Positions 780-5,309 of a stretch of 64,000 bases of DNA are shown in pieces. The DNA comes from a virus (Duplodnaviria > Caudoviricetes). Position 1 is the stretch's first letter. Each line of letters starts with the position of its first letter. The translations under genes were made by a program, and so were the position numbers. Location: the IMG/VR virus record IMGVR_UViG_2974518066_000001, positions 66,139-130,138 of that record; one strand, given 5' to 3'. The notes below the pieces were generated by a model, which saw only the letters and a program-made list of their open reading frames with translations, was not told where the DNA came from and made no database searches.

Positions 780-857
780 CTGGGTGTAGCGCAGTCCGGT
801 TAGCGTGTGCGGTTCGGAGCCGTGAGGTCGTAGGTTCAAATCCTACCATCCAGACCA
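780..857 (+). tRNA. tRNA-Pro(CGG)
   Basis: cloverleaf, loop TT-CGG-AG, encoded CCA. Confidence 0.92.
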
Positions 858-865
858 TTTTCAGT

Positions 866-943
866 GCCAGTGTAGCTCAGCCCGGTAGAGCAGGAGGCCC
901 ATACCCTCTTTGTCGGTGGTTCAAATCCACCCGTCTGGCACCA
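866..943 (+). tRNA. tRNA-Met/Ile2(CAT), atypical
   Basis: loop CC-CAT-AC (C33), bulged acceptor stem, CCA. Confidence 0.8.
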
Positions 944-950
944 GTTCTTA

Positions 951-1089
951 GAGGTAACGCCGGTTCGAGCCCGGCTCGCCCGCCCAGCTGGTGATCGTCT
1001 AGTTTCGTAGGACGCCTCGCAAGGGAAACGTCGGTTCAAATCCGGCCCGCCCGTAGTTTAGGGTGGTCGTCTAGTGGTTAGGACGCCCT
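951..1089 (+). ncRNA. tandem circularly permuted tRNA-like modules (YrlA/Y-RNA-like architecture)
   Basis: two units of T-arm, loop-closed acceptor stem, D-arm, closed by GAGG/CCTC and AGGG/CCCT. Confidence 0.65.
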
Positions 1090-1131
1090 GTAATTCGGTC
1101 CAGGTATCCGTCAAATCGGATGGACCAGCGG

Positions 1132-1206
1132 TGGGGATTAGCTCAGCGGTAGAGCAGCCGTTTTACATGCGGCCGGTCGGCGGTTCGATCCCGTCATCCC
1201 TAACCA
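1132..1206 (+). tRNA. tRNA-Val(TAC)
   Basis: cloverleaf, loop TT-TAC-AT, CCA. Confidence 0.92.
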
Positions 1207-1208
1207 AC

Positions 1209-1283
1209 GCCTCGTTAGCTCAGCGGTAGAGCGCTGCTATGACATGGCAGATGACGGTGGTTCAAACCCATCACGAGGCACCA
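1209..1283 (+). tRNA. tRNA-Val(GAC)
   Basis: cloverleaf, loop AT-GAC-AT, CCA. Confidence 0.92.
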
Positions 1284-1287
1284 TTTT

Positions 1288-1555
1288 GAGACCCGAGGTA
1301 AAGGGATGTGAGGCGTGCAAGAGCCACGCGCTTTAGAAGCCCTGATCCTTGCGACGGTAGGCTCACGTCGCACCAGTTAGACCAAATCCGTGGCGGATGC
1401 TGCGGCCACCCGCGAGAGTGCGGTAACACCGGAAGGCCAGAGGGCGGTGGCGGTTAGTTATTCGAGGTTGGGCCTGTCGGACGCGGCAGGTAGGAGATCG
1501 CATAGCCCGGCTGTTAACCGGCGGTCCTATACGGACGTGTGAAGCTCCACCCAGC
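1288..1555 (+). ncRNA. unassigned structured RNA containing a tRNA-Asn anticodon stem-loop copy
   Basis: multiple hairpins; GCCCGGCTGTTAACCGG also present in tRNA-Asn. Confidence 0.5.
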
Positions 1556-1630
1556 GGGGATGTAGCTCAGAGGTAGAGCACCCGTTTTGCAAGCGGAAGC
1601 GCGTCGGTTCGACTCCGACCATCTCCACCA
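1556..1630 (+). tRNA. tRNA-Ala(TGC)
   Basis: cloverleaf, G3:U70, CCA. Confidence 0.93.
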
Positions 1631-1764
1631 GTTTAGGACGGCGAGTGGCCCGGTATTGGTCCGGGCATCAAATGGACTGCGGAGCGGGGAACTATCGCCT
1701 ATCCCGCCCGGTCATGCGAGGACAAAATGGAGCGTGGCGCTCCTACTCGCAACGCCACACCTGT

Positions 1765-1846
1765 TTGGTAGTGACAGAGTGGTAATGTGCCCGGCTGTTA
1801 ACCGGTGACCCGAAAGGCGGTGGTTCGATCCCACCCTACCGAACCA
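1765..1846 (+). tRNA. tRNA-Asn(GTT) with long variable arm
   Basis: loop CT-GTT-AA; CC-GAAA-GG variable stem; CCA. Confidence 0.85.
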
Positions 1847-1847
1847 T

Positions 1848-1924
1848 AGCGGTGTAGCTCAGCCCGGTAGAGCAACCGACCGATAATCGGTGTGTCGCAG
1901 GTTCAAATCCTGCCATCGCTACCA
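1848..1924 (+). tRNA. tRNA-Ile(GAT)
   Basis: loop CC-GAT-AA (C33), CCA. Confidence 0.9.
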
Positions 1925-1946
1925 GTTTCTCGAAAGGACCCGACCC

Positions 1947-2453
1947 TTGAAGAAGATGTTCGTGATGGCGGCTGCGGTAGCCTCAATGCTCGTTGCTGCC
2001 TGCGATCGACAGCCTTCTGCTGCCGAGCGCTGCATGGAGGCCAAGAACCCGCAGGAATGCTATCAGGTGGCAAACGCTGGTGGCGACATCAACGATTACC
2101 TGATCGGTGGCCTCGGCGGTTACATGCTGGCGAAGGTCATGAGCGGCGGGCGGCAGCAGACCGTCATCGTGCAGAACCCGAATTATCATGGGCCGCGCCG
2201 ATACGTCCCCAGCTACGCTTCCAGCCGTCAGCGCGTCCTCAACGGACAGGTCAAGACGGTCAGCACCACGACCACGAAGCGCGGCCTGTTCGGGTCGAAG
2301 ACCACCACCACGACCAAGACTTTCGGCTCCAAGCCTGCCAGCTCGTGGGGCTCTTCCTACTCGAAGCCATCCAAGTCTTGGGGCTCGTCGTCCCGGTCCT
2401 TCTCTTCTTCGCGGTCGTCCTTCTCGTCGCGATCTTCGTTCCGGCGCCGCTGA
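1947..2453 (+). CDS. lipoprotein, DUF1190-like, Ser/Arg-rich tail
   Basis: TTG start after AAGGA; lipobox-like LVAAC; Cys pair, GGLGGYMLAK helix, SSR-rich C-terminus. Confidence 0.7.
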   Translation: MKKMFVMAAAVASMLVAACDRQPSAAERCMEAKNPQECYQVANAGGDINDYLIGGLGGYMLAKVMSGGRQQTVIVQNPNYHGPRRYVPSYASSRQRVLNGQVKTVSTTTTKRGLFGSKTTTTTKTFGSKPASSWGSSYSKPSKSWGSSSRSFSSSRSSFSSRSSFRRR

Positions 2454-2488
2454 CAATCTAGGGTTGGTGAATTATTTCACTAACCCTA

Positions 2489-2517
2489 TTGACAGTTAAA
2501 GTAACTTCCGTTACACT
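2489..2517 (+). promoter_or_regulatory. sigma70 promoter of tRNA operon 2
   Basis: TTGACA-N17-TACACT. Confidence 0.85.
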
Positions 2518-2571
2518 CTCCGCATCATGAGCCAATCGGCTCTCATCAGTTTCAGAGAAAAGCTCACCACC

Positions 2572-2631
2572 ATGTTCACCCGGTTTGGAAAACGAGATCG
2601 CCGAGAAGGCGAACGAGGTTTTAGCCTCTAA
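2572..2631 (+). CDS. attenuator leader peptide 1 MFTRFGKRDRREGERGFSL (in-frame upstream ATG at 2527)
   Basis: core made only of K,G,D,E,R,F, matching downstream tRNAs; followed by antiterminator/terminator. Confidence 0.8.
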   Translation: MFTRFGKRDRREGERGFSL

Positions 2632-2668
2632 CCGGTAGTGTGCCTTTTGCTGCCGGTGCTGTTTTAGC

Positions 2669-2744
2669 GGATCGGTAGCTCAGTAGGTAGAGCAGGGGAT
2701 TCTTACTCCCAAGGTGGACGGTTCAAGCCCGTCTCGATCCTCCA
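2669..2744 (+). tRNA. tRNA-Lys(CTT)
   Basis: loop TT-CTT-AC, U73 discriminator, CCA. Confidence 0.88.
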
Positions 2745-2765
2745 AGACAGCATCGGAAGTTTTAG

Positions 2766-2801
2766 ACACCCTACCGGACACCCGGTGGGGTGTTTTCGTT
2801 T
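2766..2801 (+). terminator. intrinsic terminator (attenuator) after first tRNA of operon 2
   Basis: ACACCCTACCGG/CCGGTGGGGTGT stem plus TTTCGTTT. Confidence 0.8.
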
Positions 2802-2816
2802 GCGCTTCTCGGCTTC

Positions 2817-2892
2817 GGGCCGGTAGCTCAGTAGGCAGAGCAGGGGGCTTTTAACCTCAAGGTGGTCGGTTCAAGCCCGACCCGGCTCACCA
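2817..2892 (+). tRNA. tRNA-Lys(TTT)
   Basis: cloverleaf, loop CT-TTT-AA, CCA. Confidence 0.92.
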
Positions 2893-2900
2893 GTTTCAAT

Positions 2901-2975
2901 GCAGGCGTCGTTCAGACGGTAGGACACCTCCTTGCCATGGAGGAGACGCGGGTTCGAGACCCGCCGCCCGCTCCA
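2901..2975 (+). tRNA. tRNA-Gly(GCC)
   Basis: cloverleaf, U73, CCA. Confidence 0.92.
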
Positions 2976-2987
2976 TCATTCACCTTT

Positions 2988-3064
2988 GGTTCTGTAGCTT
3001 AGCTGGTGAAAGCGCCGGGTTGTCAACTCGGAGATCGCGGGTTCAAGTCCCGTCAGAACCGCCA
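2988..3064 (+). tRNA. tRNA-Asp(GTC)
   Basis: cloverleaf, G73, CCA. Confidence 0.93.
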
Positions 3065-3065
3065 T

Positions 3066-3140
3066 GGGGCGTTCGTCTAGCGGACAGGACGCTGGCTTCT
3101 CAAGCCGGAAGCAGGGGTTCGATTCCCCTACGCCTCACCA
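3066..3140 (+). tRNA. tRNA-Glu(CTC)
   Basis: cloverleaf, loop TT-CTC-AA, CCA. Confidence 0.92.
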
Positions 3141-3148
3141 GTTCACAT

Positions 3149-3224
3149 AGCGCCATCGTCTAGCGAGCAGGACACGTTGGCTTTCACCCTTCGGACGCGG
3201 GTTTGAATCCCGTTGGCGCTGCCA
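3149..3224 (+). tRNA. tRNA-Glu(TTC), distorted anticodon stem
   Basis: loop CT-TTC-AC, tandem U.U mismatches, T-loop TTTGAAT, CCA. Confidence 0.75.
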
Positions 3225-3250
3225 GTGAACAGTTATGAAGAGAGTTTCGA

Positions 3251-3325
3251 GCGACATTAGCTCAGCGGTAGAGCGGCGGTTTTCCAGTCCGCGCGTCAGG
3301 AGTTCGATCCTCCTATGTCGCTCCA
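3251..3325 (+). tRNA. tRNA-Gly(TCC)
   Basis: cloverleaf, U73, CCA. Confidence 0.9.
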
Positions 3326-3334
3326 AATTCTCTT

Positions 3335-3410
3335 GGCCCGGAAGCACAACTGGACGTGCGCTCCGCTACGAACGGAAAGGTTGTGGGTTCGAGTCCCACG
3401 CGGGCCTCCA
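3335..3410 (+). tRNA. tRNA-Arg(ACG)
   Basis: loop CT-ACG-AA, CCA. Confidence 0.9.
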
Positions 3411-3415
3411 TTTTC

Positions 3416-3490
3416 GGTGAGGTAGCTCAGAGGTAGAGCGCCGGTTTGAAAAGCCGGGCGTCGGTGGTTCGATCCCGCCTCTCACCACCA
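3416..3490 (+). tRNA. tRNA-Phe(GAA)
   Basis: cloverleaf, loop TT-GAA-AA, CCA. Confidence 0.93.
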
Positions 3491-3497
3491 GAGGTTT

Positions 3498-3854
3498 ATG
3501 CAAGACGAAATCGAACGAAAGCGACGAAACAGCGCGGCCCACTATGCGAGAAATCGGGAGGCCGTAAAGGCTAAGTCGAGGGCAGCAAAGCCTCTACGCC
3601 GAGCTGCCTGTCACCAGTTCGTCCTAGAGTATTTGCTTAATCACCCTTGTGTCGATTGCGGCGAGGACGATCCGATCGTTTTGGAGTTCGACCATCAACG
3701 AGACAAGAGCTTCGCGATTTCTGATGGAGCCCGAGCCGGGTATAGCCTCAAAAAGCTAGAGGCAGAGATCGCAAAGTGTGAGGTTCGCTGTGCCAACTGC
3801 CACAGACGGAAAACCTACCGGGAGCGCGGATTGGAAAATCGCACCATCCATTAA
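3498..3854 (+). CDS. HNH endonuclease
   Basis: CVDCG..LEFDH..CEVRCANCH motif. Confidence 0.88.
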   Translation: MQDEIERKRRNSAAHYARNREAVKAKSRAAKPLRRAACHQFVLEYLLNHPCVDCGEDDPIVLEFDHQRDKSFAISDGARAGYSLKKLEAEIAKCEVRCANCHRRKTYRERGLENRTIH

Positions 3855-3862
3855 AATAGTTA

Positions 3863-3891
3863 TTGACACTAACCTATAGTTCGGTTATCAT
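3863..3891 (+). promoter_or_regulatory. sigma70 promoter of tRNA operon 3 (probably leaderless transcript)
   Basis: TTGACA-N17-TATCAT, ATG 8 nt after the -10. Confidence 0.85.
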
Positions 3892-3898
3892 TCGCACC

Positions 3899-3967
3899 AT
3901 GTTCACACAGACCACCTTGCTTACGCAGTGCCATTATTGGCAACTGCTATCGAGTTCATCCCTCTAA
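3899..3967 (+). CDS. attenuator leader peptide 2 MFTQTTLLTQCHYWQLLSSSSL
   Basis: core made only of S,Y,L,T,H,Q,C,W, matching downstream tRNAs; same start and end context as leader 1. Confidence 0.85.
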   Translation: MFTQTTLLTQCHYWQLLSSSSL

Positions 3968-4001
3968 GGGAGTGGTTCTGACGCGCCACTCCCCGACCTA
4001 C

Positions 4002-4090
4002 GGAGGGTGGCTGCAAGAGGTGCGTAACCGGTCTCGAAAACCGGGCTGGGGTTAGGAGCCCTACGGGTTCGATCCCTGCACCCTCCGCCA
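4002..4090 (+). tRNA. tRNA-Ser(CGA)
   Basis: class II cloverleaf, G73, CCA. Confidence 0.88.
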
Positions 4091-4097
4091 AGTTTTT

Positions 4098-4138
4098 AAG
4101 CGTCTGCGACCACTCGGTCTCAGGCGCTTTTTCGTTTT
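4098..4138 (+). terminator. intrinsic terminator (attenuator) after first tRNA of operon 3
   Basis: AAGCGTCTG-GACC/GGTC-CAGGCGCTT stem plus T-tract. Confidence 0.8.
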
Positions 4139-4154
4139 GGAGATTTTGATTTTC

Positions 4155-4238
4155 GGGAGGGCTGGGCACGAGTGAGCCCACACGCCTGTAAAGCGGACGC
4201 GAAAGCTGTGAGGGTGCAAATTCCCTCACCTCCCACCA
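4155..4238 (+). tRNA. tRNA-Tyr(GTA), atypical
   Basis: loop CT-GTA-AA, variable stem, T-loop TGCAAAT, CCA. Confidence 0.8.
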
Positions 4239-4243
4239 TTATT

Positions 4244-4328
4244 GGCCCGCTGGTGAAATGTAGACGCACTCGCCTCAGAAGCGAGCGACCGAGAGGTCAT
4301 CCCGGTTCAAATCCGGGGCGGGCCACCA
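4244..4328 (+). tRNA. tRNA-Leu(CAG)
   Basis: class II cloverleaf, CCA. Confidence 0.92.
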
Positions 4329-4333
4329 TGATC

Positions 4334-4418
4334 GGGGATGTGGTGAAATAGGTAAACGCAGCGGGTCGAGAGCCCGCCGCCTGATGGCTTGAGGGTTCAA
4401 GTCCCTCCATCCCCACCA
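4334..4418 (+). tRNA. tRNA-Leu(GAG)
   Basis: class II cloverleaf, loop TC-GAG-AG (C33), CCA. Confidence 0.88.
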
Positions 4419-4449
4419 TGATTATCACGCATCTCAGATGCGCCAGAAT

Positions 4450-4523
4450 GCCCGGTTAGCTCAATGGTAGAGCTACGCCGTCGTAACGCGAGGACGAGGG
4501 TTCGATTCCCTCACCGGGCTCCA
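4450..4523 (+). tRNA. tRNA-Thr(CGT)
   Basis: cloverleaf with mismatched anticodon stem, CCA. Confidence 0.82.
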
Positions 4524-4537
4524 TGCAGGTCTCAGGT

Positions 4538-4611
4538 GTGACCGAGGCAGAGTTGGATCATGTGCCGGGTCGTGATCCCGGATACGGCGGGTTCGAGCCC
4601 CGCCGGTCACC
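4538..4611 (+). tRNA. tRNA-His(GTG), no encoded CCA
   Basis: loop TC-GTG-AT (C33), GTGACCG/CGGTCAC acceptor. Confidence 0.82.
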
Positions 4612-4631
4612 CCTAAGCCCTGCAAGGCTAT

Positions 4632-4705
4632 TTCCCGTTCGTTCAATGGTAGGACGCCCGGCTCTGAACCGGGAGATCGAGGTTCGAGTCCTTGACGGGG
4701 AACCA
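4632..4705 (+). tRNA. tRNA-Gln(CTG)
   Basis: U1:A72 cloverleaf, CCA. Confidence 0.92.
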
Positions 4706-4720
4706 GATTTATCCGCACAC

Positions 4721-4807
4721 GGAGAGTTGCCAGAGCGGTAATGGGCTGGCTTGCTAAGCCAAGACAACCTCACGGTTGCGAGGGTTCGATCCCCTCACTC
4801 TCCTCCA
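4721..4807 (+). tRNA. tRNA-Ser(GCT)
   Basis: class II cloverleaf, CCA. Confidence 0.9.
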
Positions 4808-4815
4808 TCATCACT

Positions 4816-4889
4816 GCCGCCTTGGCCGAGTGGCAAGGCTCCGGATTGCAACCCCGGCATCTCCCGTTCGATCCGGGAAGGCGGCTCCA
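4816..4889 (+). tRNA. tRNA-Cys(GCA)
   Basis: cloverleaf, U73, CCA. Confidence 0.9.
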
Positions 4890-4893
4890 TCAT

Positions 4894-4969
4894 ATCTCCA
4901 AAGCATTAAGGGGCGATGCACCGGTCTCCAAAACCGGCAAGCTGGGTTCGAGTCCTAGTGGAGGTGCCA
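4894..4969 (+). tRNA. tRNA-Trp(CCA)
   Basis: loop CT-CCA-AA, G73, CCA. Confidence 0.9.
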
Positions 4970-5133: not shown

Positions 5134-5165
5134 CGCCGCCGGGTTAATTCCCGGCGGCTTTTTTG
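5134..5165 (+). terminator. intrinsic terminator ending tRNA operon 3
   Basis: GCCGCCGGG/CCCGGCGGC plus T7. Confidence 0.88.
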
Positions 5166-5309
5166 TGCTAATTCGCCTAGAATGATTCGGCAAGGGCGTA
5201 TCTTCTGGTCATTGACTTTTTCGGCATTTTGCTCTATGATCCGGCGTTCTGCATCCGTCTTCGAGGGTGCGTCTCCTCCACATCGTTATCACCCTCACGA
5301 GGACCCATC

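Follow-up and report, generated by a model that had tools for sequence, protein, structure and literature searches.

The window analysed here is a stretch of 64,000 nucleotides that begins at base 66139 of a virus record of 130,138 bp, and its phage is taken to be Sphingobium phage Lacusarx. A total of 24 tRNA genes are located at positions 780-4969 of the window (66918-71107 in the genome). Part of this array forms an operon encoding tRNAs for K, G, D, E, R, and F, at the head of which a promoter, a short open reading frame (ORF), a tRNA-Lys(CTT) gene, and an intrinsic terminator are arranged together with several mutually complementary segments. The features of this unit are as follows (window coordinates, all on the + strand).

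2489-2517, +, sigma-70-type promoter, TTGACA-17-TACACT
2529-2542, +, 5'-proximal hairpin GAGCC-AAUC-GGCUC, present in the predicted folds, with ATG 2527 at its foot
2572-2631, +, leader ORF of 19 codons, MFTRFGKRDRREGERGFSL, with start codon ATG at 2572-2574 and a TAA stop; the proposed sensor
2598-2612, +, small hairpin H0 (UCGCC-GAGAA-GGCGA) inside the ORF, found in the folds of all nine phages analysed
2600-2615, +, L, leader codons R10-R15, pairing with P
2615-2628, +, small hairpin H1 (GAGG-UUUUAG-CCUC) inside the ORF, likewise found in the folds of all nine phages
2632-2642, +, A, the antiterminator strand, CCGGTAGTGTG, directly 3' of the stop codon
2648-2657, +, X, local partner of A (anti-antiterminator and possible pause hairpin), overlapping B
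2653-2665, +, B, 5' strand of the pre-tRNA leader-trailer helix
2669-2744, +, tRNA-Lys(CTT) with an encoded CCA (57.8 bits), upstream of the terminator and enclosed by the putative switch
2744-2756, +, B', 3' strand of the leader-trailer helix, beginning at the final A of the encoded CCA
2767-2801, +, intrinsic terminator: T5 at 2767-2777 (CACCCTACCGG), loop at 2778-2781, T3 at 2782-2792, and U-tract UUUUCGUUU at 2793-2801
2797-2813, +, P, post-terminator segment made up of the distal U-tract and spacer, ending 3 nt before tRNA-Lys(TTT)
2817-3490, +, eight tRNA genes past the terminator: Lys-TTT, Gly-GCC, Asp-GTC, Glu-CTC, Glu-TTC, Gly-TCC, Arg-ACG, and Phe-GAA

The nearest sequenced relatives of the stretch are the Erythrobacter phages XM05 and vB_EliS-L02 (L02). 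Further relatives were sought by pattern scans of viral, metagenome, and genome collections, using a downstream tRNA-Lys as the filter. The metagenome and genome scans yielded 67 and 45 matches, respectively, most of which were due to chance; the genuine ones were L075, L213, and L029, the last being a duplicate of L003. When the DNA pattern was relaxed, 111 loci were obtained from viral contigs, none of them a new member. Besides Erythrobacter phages XM05 and L02, homologous units were found in a contig of a Sphingobium assembly and in seven metagenomic contigs, and ten distinct units were distinguished (Lacusarx, XM05, L02, L003, L004, L007, L008, L010, L075, and L213). All ten share the same order of parts, namely TTGACA promoter, 5' hairpin, short ORF, A, X/B, tRNA-Lys(CTT), B', terminator, and tRNA-Lys(TTT), and the K/G/D/E/R/F tRNA set continues after the homologous terminator in the relatives whose locus is long enough. 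L213 is a 126,565-bp contig (NODE_9) of the isolate assembly of Sphingobium sp. MK2; it is a Lacusarx-like phage genome of high coverage and carries the same tRNA array and attenuator as Lacusarx. Phaeobacter phage MD18 was considered as another example of the layout and rejected, its tRNA genes being interspersed with protein genes and unsorted by amino-acid set. The embedding of a tRNA in the switch appears to be special to the Lacusarx phage group.

The promoter is a 10/12 match, and two such sites were found against 0.1 expected. Its -35 TTGAC and the T/A positions of its -10 hexamer are invariant among nine relatives, and transcription would start near A2524. A hairpin of differing sequence occupies the same 5' position in all nine relatives. 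On the upstream side, a palindrome of approximately 36 nt (TAGGGTTGGTGAA..TTCACTAACCCTA) at 2451-2486 adjoins the -35 hexamer; it could serve as an operator or terminate the ORF upstream. A Pfam search gave no matches for the ORF at 1892-2461.

The leader ORF, which is predicted to be translated, comprises 18-20 codons in all ten units, with the same frame and stop position and with length differences of whole codons. Its core, KRDRREG(D/E)ERGF, has changed mostly by synonymous or D/E substitutions, and the stop codon lies 0-1 nt before strand A in every unit. Among the 18 residues that follow the initial Met, 15 belong to the K/G/D/E/R/F set (binomial P=7e-5), and comparison of leader and tRNA set over the two units of the locus (the second is described below) gave 4.6e-7 in Fisher's test. 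Under standard wobble rules, seven of the eight post-terminator tRNAs (all but Glu-CUC) together read 14 of the 18 codons; the pre-terminator tRNA-Lys(CUU) reads none of the leader codons, and the conserved leader contains no AAG, the codon of this tRNA. Leader codons AAA, CGA, and TTT (0.13 each) and GGT (0.18) are rare in the long ORFs of the phage itself. No clear Shine-Dalgarno sequence precedes ATG 2572. The pairing of H1 is preserved in L010 by a change of GGU to GGG plus the insertion of a C. Codon CGA, present three times in the leader (2593-2616), needs inosine-34 in tRNA-Arg(ACG), and a tadA deaminase is encoded by Lacusarx in the tRNA module (PMC5648845), so that the sensor may report tRNA modification as well.

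The first-pass annotation of this DNA had suggested that the leader might be extended from ATG 2527. This codon is indeed in frame, and the resulting 34-aa ORF would gain an AAG codon at 2560-2562, but the extended leader is not conserved. In seven relatives the 5' region is clean, and no upstream ATG is in frame in any of them; the one found in L010 lies inside the promoter. In addition, the extra residues include S, Q, A, L, I, and T, all of which are outside the operon's amino-acid set, and ATG 2527 is peculiar to Lacusarx and located within the 5' hairpin. The longer leader was therefore rejected, and the conserved ATG 2572 is regarded as the start.

The terminator has an 11-bp GC-rich stem (predicted fold -25.2 kcal/mol; z = -5.4), and transcription is expected to terminate at 2801. 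Homologous hairpins followed by a UUUU(U)CG tract were found in all ten units, and a terminator pattern scan misses the 2767-2801 segment because the stem can run on into the U-tract. The U-tracts of both attenuator terminators of the locus (2793-2801 and 4129-4139) and of the homologues in the relatives are interrupted by CG (UUUU(U)CGUUU); a strong terminator at 5135-5168 has no such interruption.

Strand A is identical to T3 at nine of 11 positions and pairs with T5 at ten of 11, as the first-pass annotation had stated, the sole mismatch being U x C at position 8 of A. In the alignment of nine sequences, A:T5 is paired in 90 of 90 cells (26-58% of the cells in slid registers), and L213, the tenth sequence, keeps nine of 11 pairs when read from its sequence. 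Two pairs have changed on both sides (A-U to G-C and U-A to C-G), with T3 tracking both changes, and two others have changed to G.U. The compensatory changes coincide with clade splits and should therefore be counted as two events, not five. Position 8 of A is mismatched with T5 in all nine phages, by which T5:T3 is kept stronger than A:T5. Compared with shuffled sequences, the z-scores of duplex energy in the nine phages range from -2.8 to -5.4 for A:T5, from -3.6 to -7.7 for B:B', and from -1.2 to -3.2 for A:X.

A local fold of strand A had also been predicted, and A was found to fold onto 2648-2657, giving a hairpin of 10 pairs at 2631-2657. The 43-nt stretch that holds it (2626-2668) has a folding energy of -15.2 kcal/mol (z = -3.3). 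The A:X pairing is conserved more weakly than the other helices, with one compensatory pair (C-G to U-A) in L003. Three other arrangements around A and X were examined and are not claimed here. An early terminator made up of A:X and the U-run that follows it was discarded, the U-run being unconserved (UGUUGUCCUGA in L007) and belonging to B. Pairing of X with the 5' end of tRNA-Lys fits L02 and fails in L003. As for a trp-like 1:2 helix between the ORF start and A, cognate duplexes were no better than those with shuffled or swapped partners (z -1.7 to +0.6).

The second helix of the nested structure, formed by B and B', is complete (13 of 13 pairs, including 2 G.U), again as previously described. 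Its register, counted from the tRNA ends, is fixed in every phage, with 5' offset n pairing with 3' offset n-4. In the ten-sequence alignment, nine of the 13 pairs have changed on both sides and 93.8% of the cells are paired (35-49% in slid registers); this covariation support is as good as that of the tRNA's own stems, all four of which are kept in the relatives. A second, stand-alone tRNA-Lys(CTT) is present several kb upstream of the embedded copy in XM05 (L001 2032-2105) and L007 (8880-8956). The whole nested helix, A-B-[tRNA]-B'-T5, is present and conserved in the relatives with compensatory changes, competes with the intrinsic terminator, and corresponds to the unconstrained minimum-energy fold of the read-through-length RNA. 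The part assigned to B:B' in the switch requires qualification: the helix is real, but it forms in every full-length fold and is compatible with both terminator and antiterminator. Since it is present in both states, only A:T5 versus T5:T3 discriminates between them.

A second unit of the same layout is located at 3863-4140 of the window and consists of a promoter (TTGACA-17-TATCAT), a leader, a stop-codon hairpin, tRNA-Ser(CGA), a terminator whose tract is likewise UUUUUCGUUUU, and matching tRNA genes. Its leader ORF (3899-3967, MFTQTTLLTQCHYWQLLSSSSL) is near-leaderless, and 20 of 21 residues belong to the S/Y/L/T/H/Q/C/W set (P=2e-9). This layout is conserved in L010 and L02, and in both the predicted folds include an antiterminator spanning tRNA-Ser; the second unit of Lacusarx lacks one in its unconstrained and in its tRNA-constrained fold alike. 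A tRNA-Tyr-like sequence with anticodon GTA, a long variable arm, and a CCA end, which was not called by ARAGORN, is found at 4146-4238. The published annotation lists no tRNA-Tyr for Lacusarx, and the second leader contains a TAT codon despite that absence. Between the last tRNA gene of the first unit and the promoter of the second, a 118-aa ORF (3498-3854) contains CxxC...CxxCH motifs reminiscent of HNH endonucleases and has zero Pfam matches.

In the first unit, a conserved short ORF, codons that match the operon, a predicted terminator, and an A:T5 helix that is mutually exclusive with it occur together, as in leader-peptide attenuators. We therefore interpret the unit as a transcription attenuator of the ribosome-mediated (trp) type, by which the K/G/D/E/R/F tRNA operon is gated in Lacusarx and its relatives, and assign this reading a probability of about 0.6. 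Recurrence of the layout in the second unit and in L010 and L02 also speaks for it. Points against it are the absence of a clear Shine-Dalgarno sequence, the lack of a 1:2 helix better than shuffled sequence, the small number of compensatory events in A:T5, and, as described below, the weak footprint effect in Lacusarx and L004, the preference of the naked RNA for the antiterminator in two phages, and the share of leader conservation explained by L:P.

A third, outer helix, absent from the first-pass annotation, extends past the terminator. In Lacusarx, the L:P duplex has 16 pairs (dG -28.5 kcal/mol; z = -4.0), and its 9-nt core is paired at 8-9 of nine positions in nine phages. L003 carries one compensatory change and L02 four G.U pairs, a pattern that points to selection on the RNA of the P strand. 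In RNAs of read-through length, the predicted probability of L:P is approximately 1 in eight of nine phages, and the unconstrained minimum-energy structure of the Lacusarx read-through RNA is the nested L:P / A:T5 / B:B' / tRNA fold. Because P is located past the release point, L:P cannot decide termination; its role may be to lock the fold after antitermination, to silence the sensor ORF, or to make a processing stem. The nucleotide conservation of the leader is partly structural owing to this pairing.

If the last of these roles were the only one, L:P, A:T5, and B:B' would form a long leader-trailer duplex, comparable to the stems around rRNAs, that guides cleavage of pre-tRNA-Lys(CUU) by RNase III, RNase E, or RNase P and frees the tRNA array from the 5' RNA, the terminator would be constitutive and leaky, and the position of the ribosome would be irrelevant to read-through. 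Such a view is consistent with the enclosure of the tRNA by three nested covarying helices of about 40 bp in the minimum-energy fold of the read-through RNA, with the location of P beyond the termination point, which places L:P outside the termination decision, and with the position of B:B', which includes the CCA end and reaches to within 3 nt of the RNase P site. It leaves unexplained, however, why T3 repeats A at nine of 11 positions, with a U-tract after it in all ten units, why the ORF stop always adjoins A, and why two unrelated leaders each spell the amino acids of their own operon; we regard it as unlikely.

The attenuator reading calls for an ordered exchange of the partners of A during transcription. 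The RNAs of nine phages were folded at successive transcript lengths with the tRNA held as a cloverleaf, and these predictions, which represent equilibrium and not kinetics, gave the same path in all nine. Before the tRNA is made, A is on X, with a probability of about 1 in six of the nine phages. Once B' is out, A:X is lost and B:B' is formed in all nine without any ribosome, and once T5 is out, the probability of A:T5 is 0.89-1.0 in all nine. After the emergence of T3, the naked RNA favours the terminator in five phages, is mixed in two, and favours the antiterminator in the remaining two, suggesting that the two end states are close in energy. From this model, B:B' is predicted to act by detaching X from A ten nucleotides ahead of the emergence of T5 and by placing T5 beside A.

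The ribosome was then modelled as a 28-nt footprint mask at each leader codon, again giving equilibrium and not kinetic estimates. Masks on the last one or two sense codons or on the stop codon reduced the probability of A:T5 to 0 in all nine phages, whereas, in phages whose naked RNA prefers the terminator, masks at many earlier codons raised it, for example to 0.86-0.99 in both XM05 (0.04 without a mask) and L007 (0.05 without a mask). The effect was weak in Lacusarx (from 0.06 to at most 0.64) and in L004. In this model, stalling would give read-through, which is the classical direction. Confidence in the direction is held at roughly 60%, because the mask effect is driven by pairing of A with the naked upstream leader, which is predicted with a probability of about 0.7 and yet is no better than that of shuffled sequence.

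In the opposite direction, a terminating ribosome would melt A:X, B' would capture X, and A would be freed for T5, so that a stall or lack of translation would lead to termination and the tRNAs would be made only when translation runs well. The early formation and stability of A:X, a stop codon sited such that a ribosome there opens the A:X hairpin, and the preference of the naked full-length RNA for the terminator in five of nine phages are in line with this logic. On the other hand, B' displaces X without a ribosome in the folds of all nine phages, after which A:T5 forms, and footprints at the stop codon abolish A:T5 while upstream footprints favour it. The reversed logic would also place tRNA supply under positive feedback with no obvious benefit to the phage, and we consider it quite improbable.

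Least likely of all, and by our estimate very improbable, is a factor-dependent switch in which A:T5 or A:X is stabilised by a protein of the phage or host or by an RNA, for example a tRNA, and the short ORF is conserved for a charged peptide or only for L:P pairing: the 36-nt palindrome beside the -35 hexamer, the share of ORF nucleotide conservation that is ascribable to L:P, and the fact that translation of the ORF is only predicted would suit it, but no Rfam family (T-box, riboswitch, or known leader) was found at or near its curated score, and the frame-preserving indels, synonymous changes, codon-tRNA match, and stop placement are those predicted for a translated sensor.

For the ribosome-mediated attenuator that we favour, the following course of events is proposed from the predicted folds. 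Transcription would begin near 2524, and the 19-codon leader (2572-2631), many of whose codons are rare and which are read by the operon's own tRNAs, would be translated, with strand A first parked on X as a hairpin. After tRNA-Lys(CUU) has been transcribed and folded, its trailer B' would zip onto B, extending the acceptor stem and stripping X off A. T5 would emerge ten nucleotides later and, where A is free, would form the A:T5 antiterminator closed around the whole pre-tRNA, allowing RNA polymerase to read on into the eight further tRNA genes. If a ribosome on the last two sense codons or the stop codon covers A, or if the naked leader holds A, T5 would instead pair with T3, and transcription would end at approximately 2801. 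An earlier stall for want of one of the sampled tRNAs would leave A free, so that shortage would result in read-through. After read-through, P would pair with leader codons R10-R15 and lock the nested fold. A point against this scheme is the distance of approximately 170 nt between A and the termination point: a terminating ribosome would need to remain on A for seconds, or others would need to follow it. On this scheme, the phage probably makes the operon tRNAs when ribosomes run short of them.

It had further been suggested that the folding or processing of the pre-tRNA could feed into termination, which is plausible. A stronger version, in which pre-tRNA-Lys(CUU) is an active part of the sensor, its co-transcriptional folding timing the hand-over of A from X to T5 via B' and its state of maturation altering read-through, is doubtful in our judgement. 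Maturation could be affected where B:B' blocks RNase P or 3' trimming, or where a host anticodon nuclease damages the tRNA. If this were the case, one RNA would combine stalling on seven sampled anticodons with the health of tRNA biogenesis, and L:P would shut the sensor ORF on transcripts already extended by read-through.

It has long been asked why phages carry tRNA genes, and the regulation of phage tRNAs is almost unstudied. The present results suggest that a virus gauges decoding speed at the codons read by its own tRNAs and adjusts the transcription of these tRNAs, thereby extending the logic of the trp operon to the very machinery of translation. Such a device would fit with tRNA-targeting host defences, in that the sensor ribosome would stall when tRNAs are cleaved, and replacements would be called up; genes for rtcB, tadA, and tmRNA are located in the same region of Lacusarx (PMC5648845). 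The embedded tRNA would also provide a natural case in which a long-range antiterminator relies on the folding of the structured RNA between its strands.

Among known systems, only the tRNA and tmRNA families reached the gathering score in an Rfam search, and a permissive search of 2440-4160 revealed no leader, T-box, or riboswitch. The genome papers on Lacusarx (PMC5648845) and L02 do not mention leaders or attenuators; promoters and terminators of whole modules are predicted in the former. A literature search on the attenuation of tRNA operons found no attenuator of tRNA genes.

The accessory tRNA array (trn) of Anabaena sp. PCC 7120 resembles the Lacusarx operon in being switched on when translation is impaired (PMC8421152, PMC10272220). 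In the latter report, its control is attributed to TrcR, a ribbon-helix-helix repressor acting at the promoter, and the words attenuation, terminator, and leader peptide are absent from the 2021 paper (PMC8421152). Similarly to pheST/pheM and T-box riboswitches, genes of the translation apparatus would be controlled by tRNA status in Lacusarx. However, pheM gates a synthetase and senses a single tRNA, and T-boxes bind uncharged tRNA directly via a specifier loop and a T-box motif; no match to the T-box family of Rfam was obtained in the Lacusarx region. B:B', A:T5, and L:P also resemble the RNase III stems of 16S and 23S rRNA and the leader-trailer pairings of pre-tRNAs in that they covary, flank a stable RNA, and stack on the acceptor stem. 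In contrast to such processing stems, one of the Lacusarx strands is the 5' arm of a terminator and the other begins at the stop codon of a conserved ORF.

The closest class is that of the leader-peptide attenuators, represented by trpL, hisL, pheL, leuL, and the multivalent leaders of thrL and ilvGMEDA in enterobacteria and by trpL of Sinorhizobium (PMC6614838). As in these systems, a short ORF near the promoter is rich in codons that report the product of the operon, its stop is sited where a terminating ribosome covers strand 2, the resemblance of strand 2 to strand 4 makes 2:3 (A:T5) and the 3:4 terminator mutually exclusive, and the intrinsic terminator lies ahead of the regulated genes. 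The Lacusarx unit differs from them in several respects. Its regulated genes encode tRNAs, not enzymes; its leader samples six amino acids and seven anticodons with one to four codons each and has no runs of a single amino acid; and a whole 76-nt tRNA gene is contained in the 2-3 loop. Moreover, A is first parked on the downstream segment X, from which it is removed by the trailer B', no discrete 1:2 helix exceeds shuffled sequence, and an additional helix, L:P, forms after the terminator. The class of mechanism is a known one; what is new, as far as we have found, is that it is applied to tRNA genes and that the switch itself encloses a tRNA gene.
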